Positions 3,238 to 31,683 of a DNA stretch of 34,387 nt are shown here, piece after piece; positions within the stretch are counted from its first letter, which is position 1, and the number at the start of each line of letters is the position of its first letter. The notes under the pieces are model-generated. The model had not been told where the DNA came from. It searched no databases and was given only the letters and a program-made list of their open reading frames with translations. Source of the stretch: a virus. Taxonomy: Duplodnaviria > Heunggongvirae > Uroviricota > Caudoviricetes. The stretch lies in the IMG/VR virus record IMGVR_UViG_3300045988_107065; one strand, 5' to 3'. The translations under genes were made by a program, and so were the position numbers.

Positions 3238-3249
3238 TGACATGTCACG

Positions 3250-3708: not shown

Positions 3709-3711
3709 CTA

Positions 3712-17293: not shown

Positions 17294-17590
17294 TCACTCC
17301 TGTTCACTGGCCTCTTTGGCCATCTTCAAATACTGTTCAGGGCAATGCGCCATAACGCGCTGAAACAGTTCCAGCGCCAGATTGCGTTGCCCCTCATTAA
17401 ATGCCATTGCCATAGAGTCCATCGGTGAGATAGCGGAAAACACACGGCCTTTCTCCAGCACCGACCAGACAACGCGACGCCCCTGTTCACTGCTCATGAC
17501 AAAGCGAATGTCATCAATTTCACGCTGTGCCATGTCACATTGCTTACGGGCGTTTTCTTCTTTCAGTTGATCATCTTCGTAATCTGTCAT
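17294..17590 (-). CDS. Hypothetical protein (98 aa) between portal and scaffold
   Basis: ORF translationally coupled to portal. Confidence 0.4.
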   Translation of the reverse strand: MTDYEDDQLKEENARKQCDMAQREIDDIRFVMSSEQGRRVVWSVLEKGRVFSAISPMDSMAMAFNEGQRNLALELFQRVMAHCPEQYLKMAKEASEQE

Positions 17591-19266
17591 TGTGATTGCC
17601 CACCCTGACCACTAACTGCATTCGCCATAGCTGACAAAACACTCGGCTCCGAAGTTTTAGCTTCGCTTAGCGTCTTGGCACCCTGTGCCGCCGCCATCCC
17701 CATCGCCATCATTTGTTGCTGCTGTTGTTGCTGTGCCCGTTGCTGGCGAGCCTGCTCAACCTGTTCCTGCGGAACAATGACGGTTGGAGACACTCCGGAC
17801 ATATCAGCGAATGCATCGATCGCCTGATCAACGTTGAGTTTGTCGAGAGCTTCTGGTTTCGCTTGCGCAAGTTGACCAATGAAGTTAACCGTGGACGCCA
17901 GACTGGACAGGCCGATAGACTTCTGCGCCTGAGCCATGACGGAAATGTATTCGACCTTCAGGGGCATACCTTCCATCGCGTCAGGCGGTGGCGGCAGCAT
18001 GTTTTTACGCACCATCATCGAGAAAGCGCGGTCAATGAGAGGGTTAAGACATTCGTCGTTCAGACGCTCCAGAACCGGCCCCAACATCAGAAGCTTTTCT
18101 TCTTTCATTTCGATCACTGCTTCAACAGGCATCGAGCGGGTATTGATGTTCTGCAACATCATGAACAGATCGACAAAGTAGGCGCTGTTAATGATTTGGC
18201 GGGTGTCCTGAATGTCTGCTACCAGATCTGCTGTACTGGGGTTAACCAGATAAGCAGGCCTGAAACCATCCTGACCAGTAATCTGATCGATATACGTGAT
18301 GTCGCCAGGAAGAAGAGAGGCGCGCTGATTCTTGAGGGAAGTCGGAGCAACCATCGGCGGATTGGTGGCTTTATCAATCAACTGCGACTTGCGCTTCTGG
18401 AGAAGCTGCAATGCCTTAACAGGTCCAAGCGCCAGCATACCCGGGCATGATGATCCATAAACATCTTCGCCGTTAACTTCCCAGCGCGGAGCCATAATTG
18501 GAAACTCATCGAATCCGGACTCACGCAACAACTTGTCGTTATCGCCGCCAACCTCGTAATAAACCGATTTGAATGGCTTGTTCTTGCTATCCAGCTTCGA
18601 TGTATCGCGGTCAATGTTCGGGTAAACCGAATGCATAACTTCAATCCACTTCTCGTAGGTTCCGCTTTCCCACATGCTTTTTACGGATTCGCTGACGTTA
18701 TTTAGCCCGAACTCCTGAACAAGCTGACGAACAGTCATAGAGAACTTGCGAAAACAGGTGTCCACACTGCCACGAGGTGAGTTAGCCAGGTAGTAACTGC
18801 CTATCGGGAATGGCATTGTGCGAATGATGTCCTCGTCATCCTCCAGCACTGCCATTGCACCAGTGCTGTATGTGCCGAGGCTTCCGTATAACTGCGGCAG
18901 CGACTGATAGAGATTCGACTTATTGAACATATCGTTCATGCGGTTCTGCACCGCCTCAAGCCACAACTTAACAGGGCCATAATCCATCATTTCAGGATCT
19001 GGCGTAGCCAGGCGAAACCACGGACGCGCGGGGCTTGTGATGCCTGACATCATGCCGCTGGCGAGAGTGCGCGCCGCCATAGTCCCGGTCGAATCAATAA
19101 TGCGTGTATTGCGTCGATCGTTACGGTTGACCTCAGAAGTCAGAAAGCGGGAACCACGCGGGTTGATGTAATCACTCAACTCGCGCCAGTGCGGCTCGAA
19201 CGACTGACGCTCGCTTTCAAGTTGTGCGAACTGTTTGTTCAATCGCTCTTTAGTTGTTTCCGCCAT
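17587..19266 (-). CDS. Portal (head-to-tail connector) protein, podovirus type
   Basis: 559 aa; N-terminus and Gln/Ala/Met-rich C-terminal tail resemble T7 gp8-family connectors; downstream of terminase. Confidence 0.75.
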   Translation of the reverse strand: MAETTKERLNKQFAQLESERQSFEPHWRELSDYINPRGSRFLTSEVNRNDRRNTRIIDSTGTMAARTLASGMMSGITSPARPWFRLATPDPEMMDYGPVKLWLEAVQNRMNDMFNKSNLYQSLPQLYGSLGTYSTGAMAVLEDDEDIIRTMPFPIGSYYLANSPRGSVDTCFRKFSMTVRQLVQEFGLNNVSESVKSMWESGTYEKWIEVMHSVYPNIDRDTSKLDSKNKPFKSVYYEVGGDNDKLLRESGFDEFPIMAPRWEVNGEDVYGSSCPGMLALGPVKALQLLQKRKSQLIDKATNPPMVAPTSLKNQRASLLPGDITYIDQITGQDGFRPAYLVNPSTADLVADIQDTRQIINSAYFVDLFMMLQNINTRSMPVEAVIEMKEEKLLMLGPVLERLNDECLNPLIDRAFSMMVRKNMLPPPPDAMEGMPLKVEYISVMAQAQKSIGLSSLASTVNFIGQLAQAKPEALDKLNVDQAIDAFADMSGVSPTVIVPQEQVEQARQQRAQQQQQQQMMAMGMAAAQGAKTLSEAKTSEPSVLSAMANAVSGQGGQSQ

Positions 19267-19280
19267 TTCAATGACTCCGG

Positions 19281-19487
19281 TTACTGACCAAGCAGCGTTT
19301 TACCGCTGGTATTAGCGGTTGATGTGTCACCCTGAGAACCGGTAAGCAGCGTAGAACTACGACCAGCAGCAGCGCGACGGCGACGAGTTTCTTCGTCGCG
19401 GGCATCAACAACGGCGGCATCCTGCTCCTGTGGTGCTGCCTGAACTTCTGGTGTTGCAGGCACTGACGGTGAGCTACCCATGCACAT
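19281..19487 (-). CDS. Small hypothetical protein (68 aa), Ala/Arg-rich
   Basis: ATG with GGAG 8 nt upstream, immediately upstream of portal. Confidence 0.35.
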   Translation of the reverse strand: MCMGSSPSVPATPEVQAAPQEQDAAVVDARDEETRRRRAAAGRSSTLLTGSQGDTSTANTSGKTLLGQ

Positions 19488-19577
19488 ATCAATGACTCCG
19501 TACGCAATTAAATTATTACCAATTTAACCACATATGATTTATTTATCGTAGACAGTTGACATTTAACGCACGAATTA

Positions 19578-19592
19578 TTACCTTTCAGGTAA
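19578..19592. promoter_or_regulatory. TTACC-N5-GGTAA palindrome (site 4) just downstream of a TTGACA hexamer (19556-19561)
   Basis: attaccTTTCAggtaag. Confidence 0.45.
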
Positions 19593-19914
19593 GCAAATGG
19601 TTCATTCCGGTTATTAACCTGACTGGCTTGTCGTTAAATTGAACAGGTGGAGTGAGCTTTTATTTTGAGCAGTACGGCGTATGGCACATGCGCCGATAGC
19701 GGTCTGGATACGTTTAAGGGGCACCCTCCCTTGCTCGGGCAAACGAACCAGGTAGCCGGAATGTGCAAGTCGAGCGGTTTTATTCCGCGCACGGGGATTC
19801 ACCATCCCGGCGATTCGGTGTGACGCCTCGGAAGAGACGAGGGTACAACGATGAGAGCATTTATGGAGCCGCGACAAAGTGTGGCGCCTTAACAGGCTAA
19901 GTGCTCTCAGCGTT

Positions 19915-19991
19915 GTGGCATTAGCTCAGTTGGACAGAGCAACCGCCTTCTAAGCGGTTGGTCGCAGGTTCGAATCCTGCATGCCACGCCA
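19915..19991 (+). tRNA. tRNA-Arg (anticodon UCU)
   Basis: Cloverleaf folded by hand: acceptor GTGGCAT/ATGCCAC, D-arm GCTC/GAGC, anticodon stem ACCGC/GCGGT with loop CTTCTAA, T-arm GCAGG-TTCGAAT-CCTGC, discriminator G and encoded CCA; 77 nt. Confidence 0.9.
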
Positions 19992-20034
19992 GAATCACGC
20001 CTAAGGACCGTGATGCCAGAAGTTCCAGGGGCTT

Positions 20035-20077
20035 GGCGGTGATGGTTTCCCTTGAAGGACTATCACCGCCCTTTTTA
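20035..20077 (+). terminator. Rho-independent terminator downstream of the tRNA
   Basis: 9 bp stem ggcggtgat/atcaccgcc followed by CTTTTT. Confidence 0.6.
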
Positions 20078-20154
20078 CAGCAGGACGCCATTGCGATGAC
20101 TTCATGCTGTAAACCAGTACAGCCACGGAAGGCATAACTCATTGCTTCCAGTTC

Positions 20155-20178
20155 GCCCGGTTCGCCGGGCATTTTTTT
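20155..20178 (+). terminator. Second rho-independent terminator
   Basis: gcccgg-ttcg-ccgggc followed by ATTTTTTT. Confidence 0.65.
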
Positions 20179-20189
20179 AAGGTGAGATT

Positions 20190-20546
20190 ATGAACGACCA
20201 GCAAATCGAAAAAGAAATCGTTGAGAAAGGCAAAACCGCTCCGCGAGTTACGCCTCAATATATCGAAAGCATCATTCTTGAAGAGCATTTCTTTACTGCT
20301 TATGACGGCATTCGTGCTGCCAATATGGGCGTTGGCGATTCATGGACAGCGCATAAATCTACAGACCTCCTGACTTTCTGCGTATTGGTACTGAAGAATG
20401 GCTTCACCGTCACCGGAGAGAGTGCCTGTGCAAGTCCGGAAAATTTTGATGCAGAAATTGGTCGGAAGATTGCCCGGCAGAATGCTGTAAACAAAATCTG
20501 GATGCTCGAAGGTTACTTGCTGAAGCAGAAGTTAAGCGAGCAATAA
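20190..20546 (+). CDS. Hypothetical protein (118 aa) adjacent to the phage tRNA
   Basis: ATG with AAGGTGAG RBS; no family recognised. Confidence 0.55.
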   Translation: MNDQQIEKEIVEKGKTAPRVTPQYIESIILEEHFFTAYDGIRAANMGVGDSWTAHKSTDLLTFCVLVLKNGFTVTGESACASPENFDAEIGRKIARQNAVNKIWMLEGYLLKQKLSEQ

Positions 20547-20563
20547 CACCGTGACATGTCACA

Positions 20564-20590
20564 AACAGCCAGCCGATGAGCTGGCTTTGT
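20564..20590 (+). terminator. Hairpin terminator between convergent genes
   Basis: agccagc-cgatga-gctggct followed by TTGTTTT. Confidence 0.5.
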
Positions 20591-20636
20591 TTTATCCTCA
20601 TCAGAGGATATCAACGACATTATCCCCACTAGCGGA

Positions 20637-22112
20637 TTAAGCATAGGGATCGTAATCTGTGATGGCCTTGCCTTGCTGGTTCTGCTGCCCGGGAATTCGC
20701 AGACGCTTTGACACAGGGAAAGCAAACGTCAGCAGTAGCGCATCGCCTTTACCAGGAGAACGCCCAAGCCGCTCCTTGATATCTTCCTTCGGTTCGATAA
20801 CGATTTTACCGTCCACTCGAACTTTATACTCTGCCGCCGACAGGTCGTCCGCTGTTTCCTGGTCATCCAGCATCCCGCCCAGCCTCAGCCATGTCTTGCA
20901 TGAGTTGAACATCTCCCCACGCTTGTTGAGCATCTGCGGGTCAGTAGACGCGCCACCGAACGGAACAAGTTGCCATGTGCGCCCCCAACCATCACCGATT
21001 GACTTCAGACCGGTACCGTAACCGAAGTCGATGAACACCGCGTCAGCCTGATACTGGTCTTCAAAGTCAGCGATACGCTTCGCCATAATCAGATCGTCGG
21101 TGGTCTTGTTACCAGTCCATAGCACCTTACTGTGCAGCCCCTGCCGCAGGTATATCACAGCGTCATCAACGCCGGAGTATGCCGGGTCAACGCCGATTAT
21201 CACCGGAGCATGCGCCACCTGCGCAGCGGTTACCACCCGTTTCATTGCCTCATCAGTAAGACCGGTAGGGATAAACTGCAATTCAGATGCATCAGGGAAT
21301 ATGCCGCGCACACGGATTTTAACGAAGTCGCTATCTTCCCCGTAGTCATCAACCCATTTCTGCAACTGCTGTTTGTTAGTGCCTTCCACCGTCCGGCTGT
21401 CAATCTGCGCAGTTTTCCAGCGGTGTTTATATTTGCGGAAACATTCGCGGAAACGCCCGGTGTTACGTGTAGGGTTTCCGAATGCCACCCAGATAATCTC
21501 AGTGTCTTCGTCCGTCAGCGCACCCTCTGCTACCTCCCACACCAGATCGGCAATGTTGGATGCTTCGTCGAATACCACGATGATGCGTTTGCGCTCGTTG
21601 TGTAGTCCGGCGAATGCCTCAGTGTTGTGCTCAGACCAGGGGATTGCGTCAGCTCGCCACCGCTTGTCGTGCCCAGGGTCATTGCTGTACATCGCGGTAG
21701 CGGTACAGGTAAACCAGTCTTTCGTGATAGCAAGGTTCGACCACTTGATAATTTCCGGCCAGGTCTTCGTTCGTAGCTGGTTGTCGGTGTTGGCGGTCAC
21801 CACGACCTTACAATCCTCGCAAGTGGACATGCCCCAGTTGATCAGCATTGAGATGAATGCGGATTTACCAATACCGTGACCCGAAGCGCGTGCCAGCATA
21901 AGCGGCTGATAGCGCGTCTCTGGATTCTGCAGGTGATCACGTATCTCTCGGAACGCATCAGCCTGCCACTGACGTGGACCGGTGGCATGTGCTAATTCAG
22001 TCCCCTCTTCCCCCCACGGGAACGCATAGAGGGCATAGCCAAGCGGATCGTGAGTGAACCCTGCAATATCCTCGATCAACTGCTCTTCAGGAGATAACGC
22101 TGTATCTGTCAC
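20637..22112 (-). CDS. Terminase large subunit
   Basis: Walker A (ARASGHGIGKS), Walker B (IIVVFDEAS), C-terminal nuclease-like region; 491 aa; 4 nt overlap with upstream small subunit. Confidence 0.9.
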   Translation of the reverse strand: MTDTALSPEEQLIEDIAGFTHDPLGYALYAFPWGEEGTELAHATGPRQWQADAFREIRDHLQNPETRYQPLMLARASGHGIGKSAFISMLINWGMSTCEDCKVVVTANTDNQLRTKTWPEIIKWSNLAITKDWFTCTATAMYSNDPGHDKRWRADAIPWSEHNTEAFAGLHNERKRIIVVFDEASNIADLVWEVAEGALTDEDTEIIWVAFGNPTRNTGRFRECFRKYKHRWKTAQIDSRTVEGTNKQQLQKWVDDYGEDSDFVKIRVRGIFPDASELQFIPTGLTDEAMKRVVTAAQVAHAPVIIGVDPAYSGVDDAVIYLRQGLHSKVLWTGNKTTDDLIMAKRIADFEDQYQADAVFIDFGYGTGLKSIGDGWGRTWQLVPFGGASTDPQMLNKRGEMFNSCKTWLRLGGMLDDQETADDLSAAEYKVRVDGKIVIEPKEDIKERLGRSPGKGDALLLTFAFPVSKRLRIPGQQNQQGKAITDYDPYA

Positions 22113-22705
22113 TGATTACCATCCTGACGTTCTTTGAGTCGCTTCCTGGCTGCCGCTATGCGATCAGCAATTGTCACATTCACATTAACATCCAGGCGTT
22201 CTTTGAATGCGTTGACGTCGACGTGCTTACCAATCAGTTCGAGGTTCTTCACCTTGTCAGGCCATTTAATTTTTTTGAGGATTGTCTCTATCGAATCCTC
22301 GTTCATGTTCATGATGGTCGATGACAGATCAAAGCCACTAAGCGTAGTGCGCCAGATTTTCGGCCACTCACGGATTGGTTTAAGGCTCCCATCGTCGTTG
22401 AGGATATCGATCACGTCCATCTGGTCGATCTCCACCAGGCGCATGAGAACGTAATCAGCACTGACGCGCATTCGTTTGTTGCGCTCCTCCATCAACTCGG
22501 CAATCCGTTTTTGAATGCGTTCATCGCGCATCATGACACTGGCTTTAACTGCCGCTGTATTTGGGGAGAATCCTGCGTTAATCGCTGCCTGAGTCTGGTT
22601 TTCAGGCGTTTTGATGTATGACTGGCAATAAGCCTCCTGCATTGCTGTGAGCGGCTTAAATTGCGTTGATTTGCGTTTATAGGTTTTAGGTTCAGCAGGC
22701 ATCAT
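22109..22705 (-). CDS. Terminase small subunit
   Basis: Conserved small-terminase N-terminal region (AYCQSYIKTP...AAINAGFSPNTAAVKASVMMRDERIQ); probable ATG at 22705 (track ORF extends to a TTG at 22783). Confidence 0.75.
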   Translation of the reverse strand: MMPAEPKTYKRKSTQFKPLTAMQEAYCQSYIKTPENQTQAAINAGFSPNTAAVKASVMMRDERIQKRIAELMEERNKRMRVSADYVLMRLVEIDQMDVIDILNDDGSLKPIREWPKIWRTTLSGFDLSSTIMNMNEDSIETILKKIKWPDKVKNLELIGKHVDVNAFKERLDVNVNVTIADRIAAARKRLKERQDGNQ

Positions 22706-22823
22706 AACCACCGTGGTAATAGTTACCGTTGTGGTAATAGTACCATGCAAAATAAAGCCGCCATAGTTGGCGGCAGTATTCAAAACCCATCAAATTCATC
22801 ATGCATAATCTACTCGTAACATG

Positions 22824-23162
22824 TCACACTATTAATTTCGTTTCATGCCAGCCTTTAGTCACCCAGCATTGCGAGTCACCATTACACGGGCATGAATTAA
22901 CTGGAACTCTCTCGCCGCACTTACCGCAACGTTTTCTGCTGATCGATTTTATACGCCCGTGCACGCGTGCATCATCCTGGCGGATCAATAACGCTATATA
23001 CTCACCAAATTCGTAAGGCGCACGCCCGGGGCGACGCGTGGCACAGTTACGCTCCAGCATTTCAATTTCCTGAGCATCAAGCACAATCTCCAGCTTACGC
23101 ACACCAGATGCAGCTTGTCTGGCTCTCTGAGCGGCTTTGCGCTCTGCTGCTGATTTAGCCAT
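22824..23162 (-). CDS. Cys-rich putative zinc-binding protein (112 aa) immediately upstream of the packaging genes
   Basis: C-terminal CGKCGE...CPC motif; basic N-terminus; ATG at 23162. Confidence 0.4.
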   Translation of the reverse strand: MAKSAAERKAAQRARQAASGVRKLEIVLDAQEIEMLERNCATRRPGRAPYEFGEYIALLIRQDDARVHGRIKSISRKRCGKCGERVPVNSCPCNGDSQCWVTKGWHETKLIV

Positions 23163-23189
23163 CAATATTTACCTTTATCGCGAACATAC

Positions 23190-23411
23190 TTAGCTGTGTG
23201 TTGCCGATGTGCGGAGATTCTCTTCTATCAATTCCACGCATTCTGACCGACGAACAAATAATTCGTCTCCGTTATGAATTACGACATAGCCGTAAGCGGT
23301 TTTACGCATCACATCGAACTCATCCCATACGGAAATACCGCACTCTGCTAACGAGCAATCCAAATAATCTTCCGGATGCTTGTCGGTGTTATTAATGATG
23401 CGAATCCTCAA
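23190..23411 (-). CDS. Hypothetical protein (73 aa)
   Basis: TTG start with AAGGTG 6 nt upstream. Confidence 0.35.
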   Translation of the reverse strand: MRIRIINNTDKHPEDYLDCSLAECGISVWDEFDVMRKTAYGYVVIHNGDELFVRRSECVELIEENLRTSATHS

Positions 23412-23441
23412 ATCTTTTCACCTTTAAGGATAAGTTGCATG

Positions 23442-24104
23442 TTAGCCACGGTTAACCTCCTTCGGCGGTTCTGGTAGCGGCATCCAGTGGGTTACCTCTT
23501 TGAGATACAGGTCTTCGCCATCACCGTCATCCCAAGTGGGATTGCCATCATTAAACCAGTCGCCATATACGCCGACCTGAGTGTTGGGGATGTTTGGCGG
23601 GTAGTTGTTTTTAAAGTCAGCTGCTAACACATAGCATTGTCGCTCTCCCATTTCTGGCATTCGCTCACTACAGCTTATCCAACCATCCGGAGTTACCGGA
23701 GAGTTGCCCGATGGCTCGTTCAACTTGCAAGTTTGGTTTACAGGTTCGGCTTCCAGTTCTGCTATGCGCTTTTTTGCTGTTTCCAGCTCAACACGCAGCT
23801 TCCCTACAGTTAGCGCAATTTCCTCGTTCTCCTGATCGCGGCGTTTTATGTATTGCTGGTTTCTTTCCCGTTCATCCAGCAGTGCCTGCACTACTTCAGG
23901 GTTGAAAGCTGCGATATAACGAGCATTAGCAGCAGCTTTTTTCTGTCCATCAAAGCCGGTCCATTTGATAACGTCTTCACATCGTTTATCACCGGGCGTA
24001 TGCACCGCATACGTACCAGTACCCGTCGAAATAAATGCAACCCATTCTCCTTGTGTTGCCTGTTTTGCTAACTCACGCAGTGCCTGATAATCAATCTTGC
24101 TCAC
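23442..24104 (-). CDS. Ead/Ea22-like coiled-coil protein with C-terminal DUF551-like domain
   Basis: C-terminal THWMPLPEPP motif typical of DUF551; coiled-coil middle; probable GTG start at 24104 preceded by AAGGAGG. Confidence 0.6.
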   Translation of the reverse strand: MSKIDYQALRELAKQATQGEWVAFISTGTGTYAVHTPGDKRCEDVIKWTGFDGQKKAAANARYIAAFNPEVVQALLDERERNQQYIKRRDQENEEIALTVGKLRVELETAKKRIAELEAEPVNQTCKLNEPSGNSPVTPDGWISCSERMPEMGERQCYVLAADFKNNYPPNIPNTQVGVYGDWFNDGNPTWDDGDGEDLYLKEVTHWMPLPEPPKEVNRG

Positions 24105-24396
24105 TGGTTGCCTCCTTTGCTGGGCTTTCGAATGTATCAAACTCAAACAACTTAACTACGTCATCAAACAGGACATAATCGCCATCAGAATCTTCAGTCA
24201 TGTCAGCGCCACAATCCTGACCGAACGAGTCACAACCATCCATATCAAGCTCGTATCGCTTGAGTTTTGCGATATTTGATAAATTCAGCGCCAGTACAGC
24301 AAGGTCATAAACCTCATCAGCGGTATACCCGGCACCATGCCCATACATTTCAATACGGGATATGATTTCTTCTACACGTTGTTTTGTGATCGTCAT
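24091..24396 (-). CDS. Hypothetical acidic protein (101 aa)
   Basis: ATG start; translationally coupled to neighbours. Confidence 0.4.
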   Translation of the reverse strand: MTITKQRVEEIISRIEMYGHGAGYTADEVYDLAVLALNLSNIAKLKRYELDMDGCDSFGQDCGADMTEDSDGDYVLFDDVVKLFEFDTFESPAKEATSEQD

Positions 24397-24950
24397 TTTT
24401 GCTCACCTTCCTGTTCTTCCAGAAAAATACGCATAGCCTCAAGCATCTCTTCGGTGTCATACGGAGACAGCTTGTCACGCAGGATGTGTTCAATGCTGTT
24501 AATGAACTTTCGGATTGCTTTGCGTTCAATTTCAGTCAGGAAAGCATCGGTGGCTGGAATGGGCTTTTGTGGTGATATAGCAATGCGAATTGTCTCAAGG
24601 TCTGGATCTGTTTCCGCTGCTGGAACCTTGATATAACCCATCTGCACCCCATTCATGATGAACCTGCGACGGTCATCACATATCGCCTTAAGCCCCGCAT
24701 TCTCCGCTGCCAGCTCCGAAAACTTCTCGTGTGCCAACTTAACAGCCGAATCAGCCTGCTTAATTGACTCAATCGCTTTCTGCTGGTCTTCGGCCAGCGC
24801 ATTAGCACGCACCAGTTGCACTTCCAGTTGCGTTGCCAAATCGCTGAGCAGCTTTGCCACACTACGCATATCAACGGCACCACATTCAGCTTTCAGTTCC
24901 GAAGCCATCTCATGCCCGGCGGCAACTAACCCTTTGATATTACTTTCCAT
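24393..24950 (-). CDS. Hypothetical coiled-coil protein (185 aa)
   Basis: Heptad-rich sequence; 4 nt overlap with downstream gene. Confidence 0.4.
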   Translation of the reverse strand: MESNIKGLVAAGHEMASELKAECGAVDMRSVAKLLSDLATQLEVQLVRANALAEDQQKAIESIKQADSAVKLAHEKFSELAAENAGLKAICDDRRRFIMNGVQMGYIKVPAAETDPDLETIRIAISPQKPIPATDAFLTEIERKAIRKFINSIEHILRDKLSPYDTEEMLEAMRIFLEEQEGEQK

Positions 24951-25011
24951 CTTTACCCTCGCTTATCCACATAACTTATTGATTACATTGATAACTAAAA
25001 AGATCGTCGAT

Positions 25012-25620
25012 TCATGCCGATCTATTTTTCATCAGTGATTCATAAAACTTTTGCCACTTATGCCGACCGAAATTAGCCTTCGAGTTACAGCTCGAACAAA
25101 GGCAAATAAGGTTCTCCTGACGACAGTCTTGCTTGTCGTAATTGATGTGATGAGTTGTTAGCCTTTTGTCTGTTCCATCACAACCTGGGTTCTGACAAGT
25201 AAAACCATCTCGCTCAATAACCCTCTTGCTCGTTTCTCGGAAATCCCACGGATACGGCAATCTCGATAATCCACCAGACCAGTTTGGATTTCCTTCCCCC
25301 TTCATCAGAGAAGAACGCATTATGTTGGAACACTGTTTCGAGCAGCATTTATGACGCTTCTCATGACTCAAGAAAACGGAGAACGAAGATCCGCATACGC
25401 AGCATATTTTTAATACTCGCTTTAGTTCCCGATTTACCGTCTTGCCTCGCTGTGAAATTCCTACACACTGAAGTGAGCAGAACCTTGAAGATGAGTTGGC
25501 TCGCTTAACCTGATATTGCCTGCCACATACGGAACAAACCTTTTCGATTTTCCCACCCTTCCAATTCGGGTTTTTATCACCGGATACAATCAATCCCGCA
25601 GCATTGGGCTTCTCGCTCAT
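25012..25620 (-). CDS. HNH endonuclease with two N-terminal zinc-ribbon repeats
   Basis: HNH-like core (TTHHINYDK...NLICLCSSCNSKANFGRH); duplicated NPNW(K/S)GG...C-x2-C...C-x3-C units. Confidence 0.75.
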   Translation of the reverse strand: MSEKPNAAGLIVSGDKNPNWKGGKIEKVCSVCGRQYQVKRANSSSRFCSLQCVGISQRGKTVNRELKRVLKICCVCGSSFSVFLSHEKRHKCCSKQCSNIMRSSLMKGEGNPNWSGGLSRLPYPWDFRETSKRVIERDGFTCQNPGCDGTDKRLTTHHINYDKQDCRQENLICLCSSCNSKANFGRHKWQKFYESLMKNRSA

Positions 25621-25970
25621 AGTTCCTCAACCTCCCATCCACCACCGAGCTTTTTAGGTTTTGGATAAGCAACCTGAAAGACAAACGGATAGCTGTCTGC
25701 CGCAACCTTCATCTTGACTCTCGCATCGTCAGTAAAGACTGACTTACTTCCCTTAACGTCCACCATCACCAACTGCCCGTCAGCCAACATCACGGCAAAA
25801 TCTACAGTCAGGAAGCAGTTGTCAGCTAATCGCAGCTTGATACCCTCAAATCGATACCAGGCGATTTCCCCTGCACGTTTACGCAGCTCAAGGTGCTGGC
25901 AATACGCAGATTCTGTTTTGTTCATCTGGCCTGTTTTGAGTCGACCAAGAGCCTGTATCTGTTTTCTCAT
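25617..25970 (-). CDS. Small phage protein (117 aa), possible PD-(D/E)XK-fold nuclease (DUF1064-like)
   Basis: TVDFAV...VDVKG arrangement resembles a D...(D/E)-x-K nuclease core; assignment tentative. Confidence 0.4.
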   Translation of the reverse strand: MRKQIQALGRLKTGQMNKTESAYCQHLELRKRAGEIAWYRFEGIKLRLADNCFLTVDFAVMLADGQLVMVDVKGSKSVFTDDARVKMKVAADSYPFVFQVAYPKPKKLGGGWEVEEL

Positions 25971-25973
25971 GAT

Positions 25974-25988
25974 TTACCTCTGAGGTAA
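25974..25988. promoter_or_regulatory. TTACC-N5-GGTAA palindrome (site 5), overlapping the RBS of the 25617-25970 gene
   Basis: atttaccTCTGAggtaatt. Confidence 0.45.
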
Positions 25989-26035
25989 TTAAAAACCACA
26001 TAAGACACGAAATCAATAGAGTTTAGAATATTTTG

Positions 26036-26050
26036 TTACCCTACAGGTAA
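26036..26050. promoter_or_regulatory. TTACC-N5-GGTAA palindrome (site 6)
   Basis: gttaccCTACAggtaatt. Confidence 0.45.
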
Positions 26051-26087
26051 TTATCAAGGCGTAAAAAAATGCGCTATCGCGCTGGTA

Positions 26088-26888
26088 TTACTTGATAAAT
26101 CCTGCCGCCTTTCCCCGCCTGTATTCCTCCATCAGCCACTGAGCCGGTGTTATTCCCCCAAGGGTGGCGGCGTTAGGCATGCACCCGAAACTTCGCCCTG
26201 GTGGATGGTAAACGTCTCCCCCTGTGTCCGGAGGTGTACTCATGGGTTCTGGCTTTGCCTGTATGCTGATCACCGGATCGGGTATCTGCTGTCCGGAAGC
26301 CACCTTTTTCGCCCAATCATCGAGCAGCCTGCGCGCGTGTTTCTCAACCTCAATCTCGCTAAGCTGGCGCTGATACATTGCACGGCGTGTATCACATACG
26401 ACCCAGTACATAACAGGATGCCGCCACGGGAATCTTTCGGGACCACCAGGATATAAACTTTTTTCCTTGCTGTACCGGTGAAACTCCGCCATCACATCGT
26501 CAATGGTGACGCCAAGAACCATCTTGCTGTCTTTACACCACTTGATGAATTGCCCTGGCGACGGCCAGAACGGAGACTCACTGGCGCGGGCGTGGCGCAT
26601 ACCAGCAGAAACCTGTTCACGGGTTCGGATCCCCCCTTCGGCAAACGCAGCAATCCACTGCTGTTTTGCAGCAACTTCCTGCTCTGGCGTCTTCAGGTTG
26701 GTTACCACTGCCGCCGGAAACAGCTGTTTCAGCTGTTTGAAAAGGGCATCAACAAGCCTCTCTGCTGACATGTTCACCACATTGTCATTGTTGACGTACT
26801 GATGCTCATAACCTGACATGCGAGAAAGGGCTTCTCCGTCACGGTTTTGTATCGCGGTAAAAACGTTGTTCACAAGAAATCCTCCCAT
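26088..26888 (-). CDS. Replication protein P-like (helicase loader)
   Basis: Strong resemblance to lambda P core (QQWIAAFAEGGIRTREQVSAGMRHARASESPFWPSPGQFIKWCKD vs RQWVLAFRENGITTMEQVNAGMRVARRQNRPFLPSPGQFVAWCRE, lambda P recalled from memory). Confidence 0.8.
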   Translation of the reverse strand: MGGFLVNNVFTAIQNRDGEALSRMSGYEHQYVNNDNVVNMSAERLVDALFKQLKQLFPAAVVTNLKTPEQEVAAKQQWIAAFAEGGIRTREQVSAGMRHARASESPFWPSPGQFIKWCKDSKMVLGVTIDDVMAEFHRYSKEKSLYPGGPERFPWRHPVMYWVVCDTRRAMYQRQLSEIEVEKHARRLLDDWAKKVASGQQIPDPVISIQAKPEPMSTPPDTGGDVYHPPGRSFGCMPNAATLGGITPAQWLMEEYRRGKAAGFIK

Positions 26889-27685
26889 GCTTCAGGGCTG
26901 TTCCAGTGCGGAACGTTGTTATCAGGTAATGTTGATTGCTTCTGTCTGCTAATCTGCAGCCGCCTTGCCAGCTTCTGCTCCCACTGTGCCTGATGGTATG
27001 CCTTACCCTCAGCCATCCAGTAAATTCTGAACTCTGCAAGTTCCTGTGCCGTTGGCAGACTGTCCAGGTAGATCCCCTGCAATGAGCTTTTCCGAAGAAA
27101 GTCATCTGATGGCTGCCATTGTTCATGCATGACAAATTTGCCTAATTGCCCTGGCCCACCAGGAGGAACAAAGTTATTCATCACGGCGTTGTTTGCGTTG
27201 GGGTCATGATGCACAGAATCCCCGTTTTTTGTCCTGCTCTCCCTCTCTTGGTTAAATGACTGGTTATATGACTGGTTCTGGATCCCGTTTTTGGGATCAT
27301 TCAACATCCCGTTTTTGGGATCATTCAACATCCCGTTTTTGGGTATATTCCCGTTTTCGGTAACATTACCGTTTTCGGGTTCATTGCCCCCCTCCCGGTT
27401 GCCTTTAATGTTCCCGTTTTTGGTTATATTAAGAGAGAAAACCCGCACTCTTTTTGTCGCTCCCTTTCTCTCTCCGGTATCTGAAATAAGCCCCATTTTC
27501 ATGAGCGATATAAGTCCGGCCTGCACGGTTTTTTTATTCAGGCAAGTGTCTTTAACGAGGCGTTCTATGCTGGGGTAGCAGAGGTTATATTCATCGGCTC
27601 TGTCAGCCATCGAGAGCAGTATGAGCTTTAATGATGAGCTACCTGGATCTGTCTCCCAGGCCCAATCTGTTGCATGTCTGCTCAT
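26870..27685 (-). CDS. Replication initiator, lambda O-like (N-terminal HTH, C-terminal DnaT-like region) containing the origin iterons
   Basis: N-terminal HTH-type region; Asn/Gly repeat segment encoded by DNA iterons; immediately upstream of the P-like gene. Confidence 0.65.
   Translation of the reverse strand: MSRHATDWAWETDPGSSSLKLILLSMADRADEYNLCYPSIERLVKDTCLNKKTVQAGLISLMKMGLISDTGERKGATKRVRVFSLNITKNGNIKGNREGGNEPENGNVTENGNIPKNGMLNDPKNGMLNDPKNGIQNQSYNQSFNQERESRTKNGDSVHHDPNANNAVMNNFVPPGGPGQLGKFVMHEQWQPSDDFLRKSSLQGIYLDSLPTAQELAEFRIYWMAEGKAYHQAQWEQKLARRLQISRQKQSTLPDNNVPHWNSPEAWEDFL
27282..27425. repeat. Iteron array (putative origin of replication) inside the O-like gene
   Basis: Six copies of CCGTTTT(T/C)GG, including two perfect 24 bp tandem units (atcccgtttttgggatcattcaac). 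Confidence 0.65.
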
Positions 27686-27700
27686 GATTAATCTCCGCTA

Positions 27701-27901
27701 TCAGCTTGAGTGTTGTGGGGAGGAATTAATCATGATCTGCTTAATCTCTGCCCTGATGCGACGGTTTGATTCCATGGTGCACTCAACACAGTGTCCGTTG
27801 TAAACCCAGCGTTCACTGTCATGTCCGTGCTTACATGGTTTTCCGGTGTAGTAGCGTTTAAGTCCGCGCTTTGCGGCATCAATACGTGTAATGATTTCCA
27901 T
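27701..27901 (-). CDS. Small Cys/His-rich putative zinc-ribbon protein (about 67 aa)
   Basis: GKPCKHGH...GHCVEC motif; ATG at 27901 (track ORF extends upstream). Confidence 0.4.
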   Translation of the reverse strand: MEIITRIDAAKRGLKRYYTGKPCKHGHDSERWVYNGHCVECTMESNRRIRAEIKQIMINSSPQHSS

Positions 27902-27981
27902 GGTAAGCCCTGTTATTAGTATTGGGATTACGGTTATTTTGTGCTGACACAAAAAAAAGATCAACCATATTTGGTTTTTTA

Positions 27982-27996
27982 TTACCTTTGAGGTAC
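27982..27996. promoter_or_regulatory. TTACC-N5-GGTAC palindrome (site 7, one mismatch)
   Basis: attaccTTTGAggtacg. Confidence 0.35.
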
Positions 27997-28051
27997 GAAT
28001 AGATATGAAAAGACCGCCGGATGGCGGTCTACAGAGGGTTGTGGCTGGATA

Positions 28052-28282
28052 TCATGAGTAGAAGAAGTATGCCAGTTCTGCTTTTGAGCGCAGCCATTGT
28101 CTTGATTTACAGGCTTTAAAAAGCCCATCCATCAATACCTTACCTGGCATTTTGCGCTTACCTGTTAAGTGAGTCTGGATATAGTGACTCGTCGTTCCGG
28201 CTTCCTGTGCGAAGGCTTCACGCTCATCCGGAGTAAGTGCAAGCCAGTGCTTTTTGAAATCGAAATGTCCGTTATCGCTCAT
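28052..28282 (-). CDS. Cro-like HTH DNA-binding protein (76 aa)
   Basis: HTH segment EAGTTSHYIQTHLTGKRKMP resembles Cro/YdaS-type HTH; first gene of the minus-strand operon, divergent from the repressor. Confidence 0.6.
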   Translation of the reverse strand: MSDNGHFDFKKHWLALTPDEREAFAQEAGTTSHYIQTHLTGKRKMPGKVLMDGLFKACKSRQWLRSKAELAYFFYS

Positions 28283-28318
28283 AGCTATTGCCTGATATTT
28301 ATTTCAGATAATAAATAT

Positions 28319-28381
28319 TCACCTATAAGGTAACAAAAATCAAGGATAGTTACCCATGAGGTGCATTTACCTGTTGGGTAA
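28319..28381. promoter_or_regulatory. Divergent promoter/operator region with three adjacent palindromic sites (two imperfect, one perfect TTACC-N5-GGTAA)
   Basis: tcaccTATAAggtaa (28319-28333), ttaccCATGAggtgc (28350-28364), ttaccTGTTGggtaa (28367-28381) between the divergent cro-like and repressor genes. Confidence 0.55.
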
Positions 28382-28436
28382 TATTGCTTTAAATTGAATC
28401 ATCTTCTGATTCAGATATGAGGCGATTTTCCAGAAA

Positions 28437-29021
28437 ATGAAAAGTATCCAGGACGTCCGCAGGCAAAATCTCAACGACTTGATCGACCGTGAATTCAATG
28501 GTGTTCAGACGCGGATGGCTGAAAAACTTGGAACTCAGGCAAATCTGGTAAACCGCTGGGCTCTTGGCAAGAAGGTTATCGGCGACCAGGTTGCGCGAAA
28601 AATTGAAGCTGCCGCCAATAAACCCCGTAACTGGCTTGATATCGATCGCTCGCTTTCTCAGGAAGGTTTTCAGCCTGTCGGACCAAGCGACATTGGTCAA
28701 CTGGCGGCTCACAACCTGGAACGCTGGATGAGCGAAAGCCGCGACCTTTCAACGCAGGGAAAACTTCACCGCGCATCCGGCGTCGCCCAGGTGACAATCA
28801 GCCGCCTGTTAAACAATGAGGTCAGCGTTTCCATTTCCACCCTGGAGAATGTTGCATCCGCATTCGGGCGTCACGGCTATGAATTACTGATTCACCCGCA
28901 CGACCCTGCGACTATCAACTATGACCGCTCGCGCTACGCTTTGTTACCCGAAACCGAGAAAGCAAAGATCGAAAGTTACATTGAATTTGTCATCAACCAG
29001 AACGAAAAAAACAAACAATAA
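28437..29021 (+). CDS. Repressor-like protein with two tandem XRE-type HTH domains and no peptidase domain
   Basis: Two HTH-like segments (QTRMAEKLGTQANLVNRW; ASGVAQVTISRLLNNE); no Ser/Lys S24 autocleavage motifs seen. Confidence 0.65.
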   Translation: MKSIQDVRRQNLNDLIDREFNGVQTRMAEKLGTQANLVNRWALGKKVIGDQVARKIEAAANKPRNWLDIDRSLSQEGFQPVGPSDIGQLAAHNLERWMSESRDLSTQGKLHRASGVAQVTISRLLNNEVSVSISTLENVASAFGRHGYELLIHPHDPATINYDRSRYALLPETEKAKIESYIEFVINQNEKNKQ

Positions 29022-29041
29022 AATCATATTTTTCAGTAAGT

Positions 29042-29067
29042 AAGCCGCCTTCTGGCGGCTTTTTTAT
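29042..29067 (+). terminator. Rho-independent terminator after the repressor gene
   Basis: aagccgcc-ttct-ggcggctt followed by TTTT. Confidence 0.65.
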
Positions 29068-29078
29068 TGCCTGTTCGA

Positions 29079-29093
29079 TTACCTAACGGGTAA
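29079..29093. promoter_or_regulatory. TTACC-N5-GGTAA palindrome (site 9)
   Basis: gattaccTAACGggtaatt. Confidence 0.45.
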
Positions 29094-29140
29094 TTTTTTT
29101 AACTCATATCTATTGACATCAAACCATATACGCATAATTA

Positions 29141-29155
29141 TTACCTCAACGGTAA
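29141..29155. promoter_or_regulatory. TTACC-N5-GGTAA palindrome (site 10) immediately downstream of a TTGACA (29113-29118) promoter-like element
   Basis: attaccTCAACggtaac. Confidence 0.5.
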
Positions 29156-29174
29156 CAGACCGAGGTAACAAGTT

Positions 29175-29327
29175 ATGCAGTGGAAAATCATCAACGGTTG
29201 GTACTGCGTTACTGCATGCGGATTCATGAGCTGGAAGTTCCGCACCTTACAGGAAGGCATTAAATGGGCTTTCGTCAGCAAAGAAGCTCGCGATGTGGCC
29301 AACGATAACGAGATATGGGAGGGCTGA
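29175..29327 (+). CDS. Small hypothetical protein (50 aa), first ORF of the plus-strand early operon
   Basis: ATG with GAGGTAA RBS; hydrophobic/aromatic-rich; below the track cutoff. Confidence 0.4.
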   Translation: MQWKIINGWYCVTACGFMSWKFRTLQEGIKWAFVSKEARDVANDNEIWEG

Positions 29328-29329
29328 TA

Positions 29330-29629
29330 ATGAACGTTAATCAGCAGAAAAATCTTCAAAAAATCATGCTGGCATTCGACAAGGACTACCGTCTGTCAGA
29401 ACAGCTATATGACCGACAAGTTGAACTGATTGAGAGTATCCGGCTTCATCAACTGGCATCAACTTTCGACGTTGTAACAGTTAAAGGCGTTCGCCAGGAA
29501 GTACTGGAGGCCGCTAAAGACAGCCCTGAGTTCGAAGAACTAATGGATGCCTACCGGCGCGAGGCAATGGCAATTATCGCCCGCTGGGATCTGGCTGATC
29601 AGCTTGATGGGCAGAGGGACGCGGCATGA
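29330..29629 (+). CDS. Hypothetical protein (about 99 aa) upstream of the recombination genes
   Basis: ATG directly after the preceding stop (TGATAATG); track ORF starts at 29315. Confidence 0.45.
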   Translation: MNVNQQKNLQKIMLAFDKDYRLSEQLYDRQVELIESIRLHQLASTFDVVTVKGVRQEVLEAAKDSPEFEELMDAYRREAMAIIARWDLADQLDGQRDAA

Positions 29630-30447
29630 AACCGGGAATTTATTTCGACATCAGCAACGAAGACTACCACGCCGGTGACGGCGTGAGTAAGTCGCAACTG
29701 GACATGGTTGCCAAGAATCCGGCGCTTCTTAAATGGGTTCAGGCAGCACCAGAAGACGAAGAGAAAAAGTCTGCACTGGATATGGGAACCGCATTGCACT
29801 GTCTGCTTCTGGAGCCTGGAGAGTTCGACAAACGCTTCATTGTTTCACCGAAATTCGATCGTCGGACGAAACAAGGTAAAGCTGACGAAGAGGAATTTCT
29901 TCGTGATGTGGCGGATATGGGGATTACGGTACTTGATGCCGAGCAGTGGCGGAAACTGGAGCTGATGCGTGATAGCGCAATGGCTCACCCGGCGGCACGC
30001 TGGATGCTGGAAGCACCTGGTTACTGCGAAGCATCAATGTACTGGAACGATGAAGAGACGGGGGAGTTGTGCCGAATTCGTCCAGACAAATGGCTGAACG
30101 AGCACAACGTGATCGTCGACGTGAAAAAGGTTGCAGATATGGACCGTTTTGCACGCCACATCGAGGAATTCCGCTACCACGTGCAGGACGCAATGTACCG
30201 CGAAGGCGCAATGAGGGTTACTGGTCAGCCGCATGGTTTTTTCTTTCTTGCCGTGAGCGAAAGCATTGATTGTGGTCGGTATCCGGTACGCGTGTTCGAG
30301 CTGGATGCGCAGGATGTCGATGCCGGGCACGCTCTGTTCCGCCGGGATCTGAATACCTATCACGAATGCCGCATCAATGATGAATGGGGCGGTGTGGAAA
30401 TCATTAAACGCCCTGAGTGGGCACGCAAACAGGATATGTACATATGA
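29626..30447 (+). CDS. PD-(D/E)XK recombination exonuclease (RecE C-terminal/DUF3799-like)
   Basis: N-terminal FDISNEDYHAGDGVSKSQL motif, D...DVKK nuclease core; ATGA overlap with RecT-like gene downstream. Confidence 0.7.
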   Translation: MKPGIYFDISNEDYHAGDGVSKSQLDMVAKNPALLKWVQAAPEDEEKKSALDMGTALHCLLLEPGEFDKRFIVSPKFDRRTKQGKADEEEFLRDVADMGITVLDAEQWRKLELMRDSAMAHPAARWMLEAPGYCEASMYWNDEETGELCRIRPDKWLNEHNVIVDVKKVADMDRFARHIEEFRYHVQDAMYREGAMRVTGQPHGFFFLAVSESIDCGRYPVRVFELDAQDVDAGHALFRRDLNTYHECRINDEWGGVEIIKRPEWARKQDMYI

Positions 30448-31385
30448 GCAACGACATCGCAAACATCAACGCACCAGTAGACACAGCAATCGCTGGAACT
30501 GCTGCAACTATTTTCAGCCCAGACGGCTTGAACCAACTGATGAAATTCGCCGAGGTAATGGCGCAAAGCCGCGTAACGGTACCGGCGCACCTCGCCGGGA
30601 AACCAGCTGATTGCATGGCCGTGGCAATGCAGGCTGCGCAGTGGGGAATGAACCCGTTTGCCGTGGCTCAGAAAACCCATGTTGTGAACGGCACGCTAGG
30701 TTATGAAGCCCAATTAGTAAACGCAGTTATCTCAACGATGTCGCCAACAAAAGATCGCATCAACTACGAGTGGTTCGGGCCGTGGGAACGCGTGATCGGT
30801 AAGTTTGTTGAGAAAACATCCAAAAACGGCAATCCATATATCGCACCAGGCTGGACTCTAAAAGACGAAGAAGGCTGCGGTGTTCGCGTATGGGCAACCA
30901 TGAAGGGCGAGGATCAACCTCGAGTGCTTGAGTTAATGCTGTCTCAAGCACAGGTAAGAAACTCCACACTTTGGGCCAGTGATCCGAAACAACAACTCGC
31001 ATACCTTGCGACAAAACGCTGGTCTCGCCTGCACTGTCCTGACGTAATCATGGGCGTCTACACCCCAGACGAATTACAGGAAACGGCACCGCGCGTTGAG
31101 CGAGACATTACTCCGCAAACGACCACTGCTGCGGGAATGAACAGTCTGATCAACGCTAAACCAGCGAAAAAGCCTGATGAGCAAACGCGTAAATCGGACA
31201 GCCGTGATCCAGAAGAAATGCTGATGGCCTTTACCAGCGCAGCGATGAATTACAGCACTGTCTCCGAACTGGATAAGGCTTACAAATACATTGCACAAAA
31301 ACTTTCAGATGATGACGAACTGCTGGCAAAAGCCACCGACGTTTACAGCGTTCGTCGGGAAGAATTAAACGAAACATCTATGTAA
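30444..31385 (+). CDS. recT: RecT-family single-strand annealing protein
   Basis: Sequence characteristic of the RecT family; coupled to the exonuclease gene (start ATG at 30444 overlapping the upstream TGA). Confidence 0.8.
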   Translation: MSNDIANINAPVDTAIAGTAATIFSPDGLNQLMKFAEVMAQSRVTVPAHLAGKPADCMAVAMQAAQWGMNPFAVAQKTHVVNGTLGYEAQLVNAVISTMSPTKDRINYEWFGPWERVIGKFVEKTSKNGNPYIAPGWTLKDEEGCGVRVWATMKGEDQPRVLELMLSQAQVRNSTLWASDPKQQLAYLATKRWSRLHCPDVIMGVYTPDELQETAPRVERDITPQTTTAAGMNSLINAKPAKKPDEQTRKSDSRDPEEMLMAFTSAAMNYSTVSELDKAYKYIAQKLSDDDELLAKATDVYSVRREELNETSM

Positions 31386-31434
31386 CCACCACCGCGGCGC
31401 CACGCGCGCCGCACTGCAACCAAGAGAGGTATTT

Positions 31435-31683
31435 ATGAAAGGTGCATTAGGTAAGAAGGAACTCCTGGCGGTGGTTCCACTGTCATGGAGCACTATCGAC
31501 CGTATGGAGCGCGCAGGGGAATTTCCTAAACGCTGGTATATCACCGATAAACGCTGCGCATGGAACCGTGATGAAGTTGAGCGTTGGCTTGATGAACGTC
31601 AGGCAGCAAGCCCGGCAGAGTTCCAGGGTAAAAAACCTCCTGTTCAGCAACGTGTATATCGTCCCGTGAGCAACGCGGCATGA
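31435..31683 (+). CDS. AlpA-family DNA-binding protein (excisionase/transcriptional regulator type)
   Basis: Motif LSWSTIDRMERAGEFPKRWYITDKRCAWNRDEVERWL typical of the AlpA/Vis/TorI family. Confidence 0.75.
   Translation: MKGALGKKELLAVVPLSWSTIDRMERAGEFPKRWYITDKRCAWNRDEVERWLDERQAASPAEFQGKKPPVQQRVYRPVSNAA

Follow-up and report, generated by a model that had tools for sequence, protein, structure and literature searches.

A structured RNA core upstream of a phage-borne tRNA-Arg(UCU) gene: a candidate mobile RNA family of enterobacterial phages

What is encoded by a long stretch of phage DNA that lies directly ahead of a tRNA gene and contains no credible open reading frame (ORF)? The question is raised by the IMG/VR virus record IMGVR_UViG_3300045988_107065 (34,387 nucleotides [[nt]]; this whole stretch is referred to as the window), in which a tRNA-Arg(UCU) gene on the plus strand lies between the portal and large terminase ORFs, both on the minus strand. 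An original prediction, made from the letters of the sequence, had described the tRNA as antisense to its neighbors between terminase and portal, which agrees with the ORF coordinates and strands, and as preceded by about 320 bp without a credible ORF; the region from 19488 to 19914 (427 bp) indeed holds only short ORFs in mixed frames. The prediction had also taken those 320 bp to be the tRNA's own leader, and here our analysis leads elsewhere: they contain an autonomous, mobile RNA module that is common to many phages and not specific to tRNA-Arg.

The conserved RNA core

Alignments of the module consist of invariant blocks separated by variable-length stems with compensatory changes, and together these define a core of about 170 nt (Table 1). 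A covariance model of 164 positions (R1), built from 21 diverse sequences with a structure read from the alignments, matches 93 loci besides the window at 100-174 bits and recovers the core at each related locus searched. In an alignment of 82 distinct sequences fitted to R1, with which an independent MAFFT alignment of 28 sequences agrees, standard pairs make up 97.8% of cells, and changes on both sides are found at 15 of the 26 pairs (193 cells, compared with 59 +/- 8 in shuffles, none of 500 shuffles reaching the observed number). When the partner columns are slid as a control, pairing falls to 25-54%.

The individual helices contribute as follows. At one pair of H1, G-C is replaced by A-U in 35 of 82 sequences, and a U-G pair present in 76 of 82 fixes the strand; in H2, a stem of variable length with an enclosed insert of 22-46 nt, C-G is replaced by U-A in 26 of 80. 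A variable hairpin separates the invariant 19-mer from the pseudoknot, whose stem S1 is 98.7% paired with compensatory pairs at three of four positions, and whose second helix is 99.4% paired, including an exchange of C-G for A-U in 15 sequences with no mispair at that position. U-G and G-U pairs, which would be mismatches on the opposite strand, are frequent and fix the plus strand as the one that is read. The structured leader of the original prediction is borne out. The leader also folds better than its shuffles (255 nt, -98 kcal/mol, z = -2.5); the real evidence for structure is nevertheless comparative. Two other pairings of the invariant AUGUGC were set aside: with a GCAC further downstream only 34% of cells pair, and with GCACAU at the H1 apex, the partner that RNAalifold prefers, both segments are invariant, covariation backing the local hairpin H1.

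The core is judged not to be protein-coding because its variable regions have lengths in every class modulo 3 (42/13/23 and 40/23/15) and because no frame is conserved, the longest open frames being scattered across all six.

Searches of known RNA families returned nothing for it. Rfam 15 (4227 models) gives no match in 19400-19914 at E <= 10, which answers the leader scan that had been proposed with the original prediction; at gathering score the whole window yields isrK, C4 antisense RNA and tRNA only, and in seven related loci neither the core nor the domain that often replaces the tRNA (see below) is matched at E <= 0.05. We found no description of the leader RNA in the literature, the Pas small RNA preprint and the papers on put being concerned with other RNAs, and the core is not annotated as RNA in any record examined, including P1, Stx2c-converting phages and a prophage of the uropathogenic Escherichia coli strain UTI89; most records leave the region blank, and a few have hypothetical ORFs across it. 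We rate the leader RNA as a new, horizontally mobile RNA family.

Table 1. Features of the tRNA-Arg locus, with positions in the window
Feature	Position	Strand	Remarks
Portal ORF	17587-19266	-	
Small ORF, portal side	19281-19487	-	
Promoter-like region	19549-19585	+	Consensus scan; -35 TTGACA at 19556-19561
Repressor operator palindrome ATTACCTTTCAGGTAAG	19577-19593		Overlaps -10/start region
RNA core (about 170 nt)	19672-19849	+	All 164 positions of R1 matched; cmsearch 150.7 bits, E 1.4e-39
H1, 9-bp hairpin CGGCGUAUG-GCA-CAUGCGCCG	19675-19695	+	97% of cells paired
H2, base helix	19703-19752	+	19703-19706 with 19749-19752; 99% of cells paired
Unpaired invariant 19-mer GGUAGCCGGAAUGUGCAAG	19751-19769	+	Unchanged in alignments A1, A2 and A4
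H-type pseudoknot	19794-19820	+	S1, 19794-19797 with 19805-19808; loop CACC 19800-19803 with GGUG 19817-19820
H5, hairpin CCUCG-GAAGAGA-CGAGG	19826-19842	+	96% of cells paired; both-side changes in 4 of 5 pairs
H6, long helix	19846-19915	+	19846-19859 with 19902-19915; hypervariable insert; final G is tRNA position 1
tRNA-Arg(UCU), 77 nt, encoded CCA	19915-19991	+	ARAGORN; Rfam tRNA
Trailer hairpin AUCACG-CCUAAGGAC-CGUGAU	19994-20014	+	Kept after tRNA or slot domain in many loci; weak fold alone
Terminator T1	20035-20076	+	14-bp stem; -22.8 kcal/mol, z = -4.2
Segment between T1 and T2	20077-20149	+	Hairpins 20077-20110 and 20127-20149; conserved in alignment A3
Terminator T2	20155-20178	+	6 G-C pairs, UUCG loop, U7; z = -2.5
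Cargo ORF, 118 amino acids, Pfam Phage_gp49_66	20190-20546	+	Pfam E 1.7e-34
Large terminase	20637-22112	-	

Distribution, genome contexts and natural variants

The window is a prophage of E. coli of the phiV10/epsilon15 type (Uetakevirus), as identified by DNA matches: over the 721 bp around the locus, identity is 99% to phiV10, TL-2011b and the O157 typing phages and reaches 100% to an E. coli chromosome. Beyond this group, megablast aligns about 245 nt of the leader, at 80-84% identity, with unrelated phages, namely the lambdoid phages cdtI, mEp460, 2H10 and the Stx2c phages, and the P1 family. Exact copies of the 19-mer GGTAGCCGGAATGTGCAAG are present in at least 120 IMG/VR contigs and in 24 stretches of GTDB species-representative genomes, nearly all of them Enterobacterales. 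In metagenomes, 68 of 120 pattern matches are accounted for by chance, and the 19-mer is found in 46 of the 52 true matches; an Oscillospiraceae contig with an exact 19-mer (L141; collected loci and contigs are given L numbers) was likewise dismissed as a chance match (12.5 bits). By BLAST, 1829 of 5426 complete E. coli genomes (34%) contain the core, at 2456 places, of which 548 are on plasmids that are P1-like phage-plasmids; about 106 phage records contain it as well. None of the chromosomal matches listed has a PGAP annotation under the core.

The genomes in which the core resides are organized in different ways. In uetakeviruses it lies between the small ORF on the portal side and the terminase, with about 80-100 nt from the promoter and operator to the start of H1 in the window. 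In lambdoid loci an S24 LexA-type cI repressor gene is found upstream on the same strand (66 of 141 loci, median gap 148 nt), and the core starts 6-54 nt past the predicted -10; in those without N it thus comes shortly after PL, at the place expected for nutL or putL. The order in cdtI is cI stop, terminator, TTGACA-N16-CATAAT, about 50 nt, core, strong terminator, second long hairpin and first early-left gene; the promoter before the core overlaps operators of the same type as at OR. In P1 the core is within the C1-controlled ban operon, with about 15 nt between it and the preceding tRNA-Ile(CAU) and about 95 nt between its end and ban; it is 2.3 kb into the operon and not promoter-proximal. 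In the Klebsiella lastavirus SopranoGao it follows the lysis genes. Four contexts have a predicted promoter that ends 6-7 nt before H1, so the RNA would start with H1 (at about +1) in these. Wherever a promoter was identified, the core is read in the sense direction within an early, repressor-controlled transcript, and the uetakevirus operator, the cdtI promoter and the P1 ban operon are three unrelated systems of such control. We regard it as firm that the core RNA is made early.

No phage protein neighbor common to the core loci was found, and neither a hidden Markov model nor the covariance model revealed a second copy in the right operon: each locus has one copy and none lies in the PR direction, the sole exception being a same-strand tandem pair (L029, 3993-4155 and 4800-4960). 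Several contigs (L029; L011, 2436-3360; L106; L144) have either tandem cores or arrays of H6-type hairpins and slot domains, and resemble the clusters of noncoding RNAs and tRNAs of virulent phages. Downstream of the module in Enterobacter phage Tyrion, Rfam identifies an int-alpA RNA (L005, 3708-3772; 44 bits, gathering score 35.8).

Natural variants separate the core from its surroundings. SfV, whose cI is 99.6% identical to that of cdtI, and ST64B are both devoid of the core and keep the H6-type hairpin, the slot domain, T1 and the second hairpin; Hafnia phage yong2, also without the core, keeps PL, an H6-like hairpin and a tRNA-like sequence and has no strong T1. In the epsilon15 reference genome a deletion (L004, 2548-2700) extends from inside H2 to just past T1, removing most of the core, H6, the tRNA and T1 and leaving T2 and gp50. 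P1 has the core without H6 and the slot domain; both of these are present in the P1-like element L045, where a Tad2-like gene comes next. In a CRISPR interference screen, trnI and ban of P1 were scored as non-essential (PMC10695390). From this result and the variants without the core, we regard the core as an optional, portable addition to an early leader that is untranslated and modular; under laboratory conditions the core can be dispensed with.

Several observations were made on the leaders of these variants. What remains in epsilon15 bears, on the opposite strand, the annotation of an RNase III site. ST64B contains a string (GUAGCCAGUGCAAGC) loosely similar to the core, which was not counted as a homolog, the covariance model being silent on it. 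Where cdtI has the core, ST64B and SfV share another sequence of about 100 nt (AACAGGCAGGACGCCCACGAAGUAGCCGCC...), located in the L282 gap (ST64B, reverse complement of 7239-8053) and in L159 (SfV, 3212-4245), which may represent an alternative 5' leader domain. The 815 nt between cI and sb37 of ST64B contain no annotated genes.

Could the conservation reflect something other than an RNA, such as a small protein gene, a site acting at the DNA level or a functionless hitchhiking remnant? Hypothetical ORFs are annotated across the core in some records (mEp460_037 and Tyrion gp54, for example), and the family is taxonomically narrow and highly similar in sequence, so that recent horizontal spread accounts for part of the conservation. 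The compensatory changes, however, maintain five helices, the pseudoknot included, the indels are not multiples of three and leave no consistent frame, the G-U pairs are strand-specific, and the core persists in four unrelated genome contexts as well as in a third of E. coli genomes; we consider it very improbable that no RNA function is involved.

The early unit around the core

The core is one part of a transcription unit that begins with the promoter-like region. Here the consensus scan reports TAGACA-N18-AATTAT at 19549-19578, and the TTGACA, which the original prediction had noticed together with a palindrome, is unchanged in the five uetakeviruses of alignment A3, where it forms with the palindrome the best-conserved intergenic part. 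Thirteen copies of the palindrome type ATTACCnnnnnGGTAAT are present in the window (at 871, 1251, 2303, 19577, 22704, 22722, 25973, 26035, 27981, 28366, 29078, 29140 and 34222), compared with 1.1 expected; none of 100 shuffles reaches 13. In epsilon15 the homologous site carries the annotation of a repressor binding site. The palindrome is the operator of the phage repressor, so the unit of leader and tRNA is an early, repressor-controlled transcript. The 13 copies suggest a dispersed operator set and many separately repressed promoters, reminiscent of the scattered C1 operators of P1.

Following the core is the long helix H6, in which 93.3% of cells are paired, compared with 85.8 +/- 0.7 in shuffles (34 sequences); there are 32 double-change cells, compared with 11.4 in shuffles (maximum 19), and the fold has z = -3.8. 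Many members carry, on the 3' side of H6, the string UGCUCUUU(CC)GUUGUGG (window 19902-19921; L001, 2730-2750), which is base-paired in the helix; its first 8 nt equal the opening of the rrn boxA consensus, and after them comes a boxC-like run rich in G and U. Lambdoid leaders have a second H6-like hairpin after T1, ending in CUGUUUUGUGGAGA (L001, 2890-3010; L282 gap, reverse complement of 7239-8053).

The tRNA-Arg gene itself is real, an ordinary phage-borne argU-like tRNA that is already annotated in several phiV10-like records. ARAGORN finds it as the single tRNA in the window (anticodon TCT, tct at position 35), the Rfam tRNA model (RF00005) scores it at 73.3 bits against a gathering score of 29 (E 2e-14), and the gene ends in GCCA, so that CCA is encoded; the canonical 77-nt tRNA of the original prediction is confirmed in full. 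Features of the Arg-UCU isoacceptor read from the sequence are the anticodon UCU, A20 (GGA in the D loop), C35 and the 3' CCA. Alignment with argU of E. coli K-12 also agrees with the original prediction that the two are similar and not identical (64 of 77 positions, 83%): they share anticodon, length, encoded CCA and nearly identical D and T arms, whereas the phage gene differs in paired substitutions in the acceptor and anticodon stems, in its operator-controlled promoter and in its fusion to a structured RNA. In the 27 long ORFs of the window, AGA and AGG account for 5.8 and 5.6 per 1000 codons (about 10% of arginine codons) and are concentrated in the tail genes (4153-10289); this usage is about 2-3 times that of E. 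coli. The suggestion that the tRNA supplements decoding of AGA codons is plausible.

A tRNA is not a constant companion of the core. Among 156 loci, 27 have tRNA-Arg(UCU) directly at the 3' end of the module and 18 have tRNA-Ile(CAU) directly at its 5' end, the strand being the same in every case; P1-like elements have the core on the 3' side of tRNA-Ile. In about 70% of the collected loci with a core, no tRNA is detectable nearby. In most of these tRNA-less loci another domain (the slot domain) takes exactly the tRNA's position, with the same H6 ahead of it and the same trailer hairpin and T1 behind. A closing stem of 7-9 bp is found in 38 of 41 sequences, with a 3' hairpin abutting it; in the commonest form this hairpin has 5 bp and covaries (GCCGG/CCGGC, GCUGG/CCAGC or GUCGG/CCGAC), a 5' hairpin has the loop GGCUGA, and the loops are complementary to each other. 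A canonical T arm (GGUUCGAnUCC) is present in the slot domain of L142, L079 and L134. Readings of the domain as transfer-messenger RNA (tmRNA), YrlA or tRNA were rejected, ARAGORN (which makes no tmRNA call in the 156 loci) and the Rfam models for tRNA, tmRNA and YrlA being silent, and we describe it only as a closed domain in the tRNA slot with some tRNA-like features. The sequence after H6 (GUUGUGGUGA...) has a perfect complement of 7-9 nt located 70-290 nt downstream in 66 of 88 distinct regions, true tRNAs included. In L001 (2743-2860) and its equivalents, the GUUG at the junction of H6 and the slot domain can pair either with an upstream CAAC, at the base of H6, or with a downstream one that closes the domain's 3' end; the two helices are mutually exclusive over 4 bp and could act as a switch.

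These arrangements bear on the possibility that the leader is dedicated to the tRNA, controlling how the adjacent tRNA or tRNA-like domain is expressed or processed, or how stable it is. The final base of H6 coincides with tRNA position 1, and H6-type hairpins precede the tRNA-like sequence of yong2 and the slot domain of SfV and ST64B. Most core loci, however, lack a detectable tRNA, the core of P1 follows its tRNA with no H6, and core and H6 occur independently of each other; a role of this kind is improbable for the core.

Downstream, the terminator scan reports four sites in 19200-20700 (1.3 expected), and scan and fold together confirm the tandem intrinsic terminators T1 and T2 that had been placed after the tRNA. 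T1, in the form GGCGGU...ACCGCC-U5-ACA, travels with the module in uetakevirus and lambdoid contexts. The segment between T1 and T2, from which a short noncoding transcript had been envisaged, is conserved in all five uetakeviruses compared, epsilon15 included, and contains two hairpins, its fold not being significant alone (z = -1.0); since T2 abuts the ribosome-binding site of the next gene, it reads more like a 5' untranslated region of that gene than a separate small RNA, and may be regulatory.

A leader placed upstream of terminators could also be a riboswitch-like sensor, in which the core binds a metabolite or signaling nucleotide and sets read-through of the early operon. The compact pseudoknotted fold, the invariant junction nucleotides and the 5' position would suit such a sensor. 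No expression platform overlaps the core, however; a tRNA or a domain of 80-290 nt intervenes before the first terminator, no riboswitch family matches, and P1 has no terminator after the core. We regard a sensor as slightly less probable still than a leader dedicated to the tRNA.

The U-tract of T2 runs directly into the ribosome-binding site (AAGGUGAG) of the cargo ORF, leaving no room for a promoter, and this junction is conserved throughout the cargo-slot loci (window, 20190-20546; L010, 3011-3532; L045; L284, 2383-2797). The slot holds Phage_gp49_66 in the window, a Tad2-like (DUF2829) gene in a Klebsiella phage and a P1-like element, and a 125-amino-acid ORF in SPN1S, and looks like an accessory or anti-defense hot spot. 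A Tad2-like assignment of the window's own cargo ORF was rejected on its Pfam match, Tad2-like domains occurring in relatives. In SPN1S, where a module followed solely by the convergent terminase was sought, co-oriented ORFs follow T2.

Elsewhere in the window, Rfam matches to isrK (1303-1378, 77.9 bits) and C4 antisense RNA (1403-1488, 77.7 bits) lie side by side, a pair that corresponds to an immI-like immunity region of the P1/P7 type within a uetakevirus prophage; the same pair is found in the lambdoid mEp460 (L002, 206-394).

Possible functions and relation to known systems

Our tentative preference is for a core that acts as a processed, stable early noncoding RNA, in trans, on a conserved host component. 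The locus forms one early unit under the control of the phage repressor, consisting of promoter and operator, core with H6, tRNA-Arg, T1, T2 and a variable accessory gene. We infer that the core would be cut from the early transcript and be free and stable early in lytic growth, its 3' end in the window being set by RNase P cleavage at the 5' end of the tRNA and, in P1, its 5' end by 3' processing of the tRNA. The invariant unpaired nucleotides would bind a conserved component of the host or of host defense, and the RNA would serve as a non-essential accessory factor, with the tRNA supplying AGA decoding. A conserved host partner is pointed to because invariant unpaired bases are found in phages that have no common protein neighbor; action in trans is preferred because the core behaves as an add-on, lies in mid-operon in P1 and has accessory neighbors such as the Tad2-like cargo.

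Several points weigh against this proposal. It presumes a discrete stable RNA species, and the pairing of H6 up to tRNA position -1 could hinder rather than help RNase P. The core is always upstream of co-oriented genes and usually of strong terminators, a layout that an antiterminator acting in cis would need and an RNA acting in trans would not. No target has been identified, no systematic search for complementarity to host RNAs having been made.

That layout leads to the chief alternative, in which the core is a put-like processive antiterminator: the nascent core, alone or with H6, would fold behind RNA polymerase and modify it, in the manner of HK022 put RNA, so that it passes T1, T2 and later terminators, giving read-through into the cargo gene in the window or into the whole early-left operon of lambdoids without N. 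We hold this to be possible but doubtful. In lambdoids the core lies between PL and the first early-left gene, in the position of nutL or putL, and a terminator of -20.8 kcal/mol and the second long hairpin stand before all downstream genes; in mEp460, which encodes a Q-like late regulator and has no N annotated, about 11 co-oriented genes lie beyond the leader. In the window T2 abuts the ribosome-binding site of the cargo gene with no space for a promoter, the invariant unpaired bases would suit a conserved target such as RNA polymerase, and yong2 lacks both the core and a strong T1. Processing of the tRNA would be no obstacle, since put RNA functions even when untethered from polymerase (PMC9378689), and the antitermination mechanism of lambdoid phages without N is considered unknown by specialists (PMC12315714).

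Antitermination is less easily reconciled with SfV and ST64B, which keep T1 and the second hairpin yet have no core, with P1, which has no terminator between the core and ban, or with the P1-like L045, in which no downstream terminator is detectable. The core is present once per locus and is missing in the PR direction, it has no likeness to put in sequence or architecture, and the association of T1 with the module in uetakevirus and lambdoid contexts is what would be expected of the end of an RNA gene. If antitermination were nonetheless its role, a prospect to which we give the same limited credence, the core with or without H6 would constitute a new RNA-only class of processive antiterminators, replacing N in N-less lambdoids (cdtI, mEp460, 2H10 and Stx2c) and borrowed by uetakeviruses and P1-like elements to drive cargo through terminators.

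The position of the core in N-less lambdoids makes early transcription past the leader terminators directly testable. A trans-acting core, the role that we favor, would be a candidate early RNA for host takeover or counter-defense that travels with rare-codon tRNAs and anti-defense cargo of the Tad2-like kind. Either way, the family is defined by a model, boundaries and natural deletion variants, and occurs in the tractable phages P1, SPN1S, phiV10 and mEp460.

Among known systems, ROOL and GOLLD are large structured RNAs of phages and prophages (about 580-800 nt), typically near tRNA genes, linked to lytic growth and represented in Rfam. The core resembles them as a structured phage RNA beside tRNA genes; it differs in having no match to their models, in its size (about 170-250 nt), in its occurrence in phages of Enterobacterales rather than of Firmicutes and others, and in its position in early-operon leaders. 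Two small stable RNAs of the phage T4 tRNA cluster and the C4 RNA of P1 are matured with tRNAs or by RNase P. Cotranscription with tRNAs or tRNA-like structures is a likeness to these, and the window has a C4 RNA of its own; the core is without homology to them, and its processing is postulated from its position.

With the N leader of lambda the core shares a place on the map, from PL/OL to the first early-left gene. The two differ in that mEp460 has no annotated N and a boxB-type nut site was not recognized, with only the loose boxA-like string in the 3' strand of H6.

The put RNA of HK022 is about 70 nt long, with two stem-loops and copies on the left and right (PMC9378689); the core has 164 model positions, five helices, a pseudoknot and an added long helix, is present in single copy and in P1 lies in mid-operon. 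The HK022 early region (22000-32500; L157 and L158) is matched neither by nhmmer nor by R1. A location just downstream of an early promoter, characteristic of put, applies to the core in lambdoids and not in P1. What the core has in common with putL and putR is to be an RNA in the leader of a repressor-controlled early operon, in lambdoids without N, upstream of terminators and with no dedicated protein nearby.

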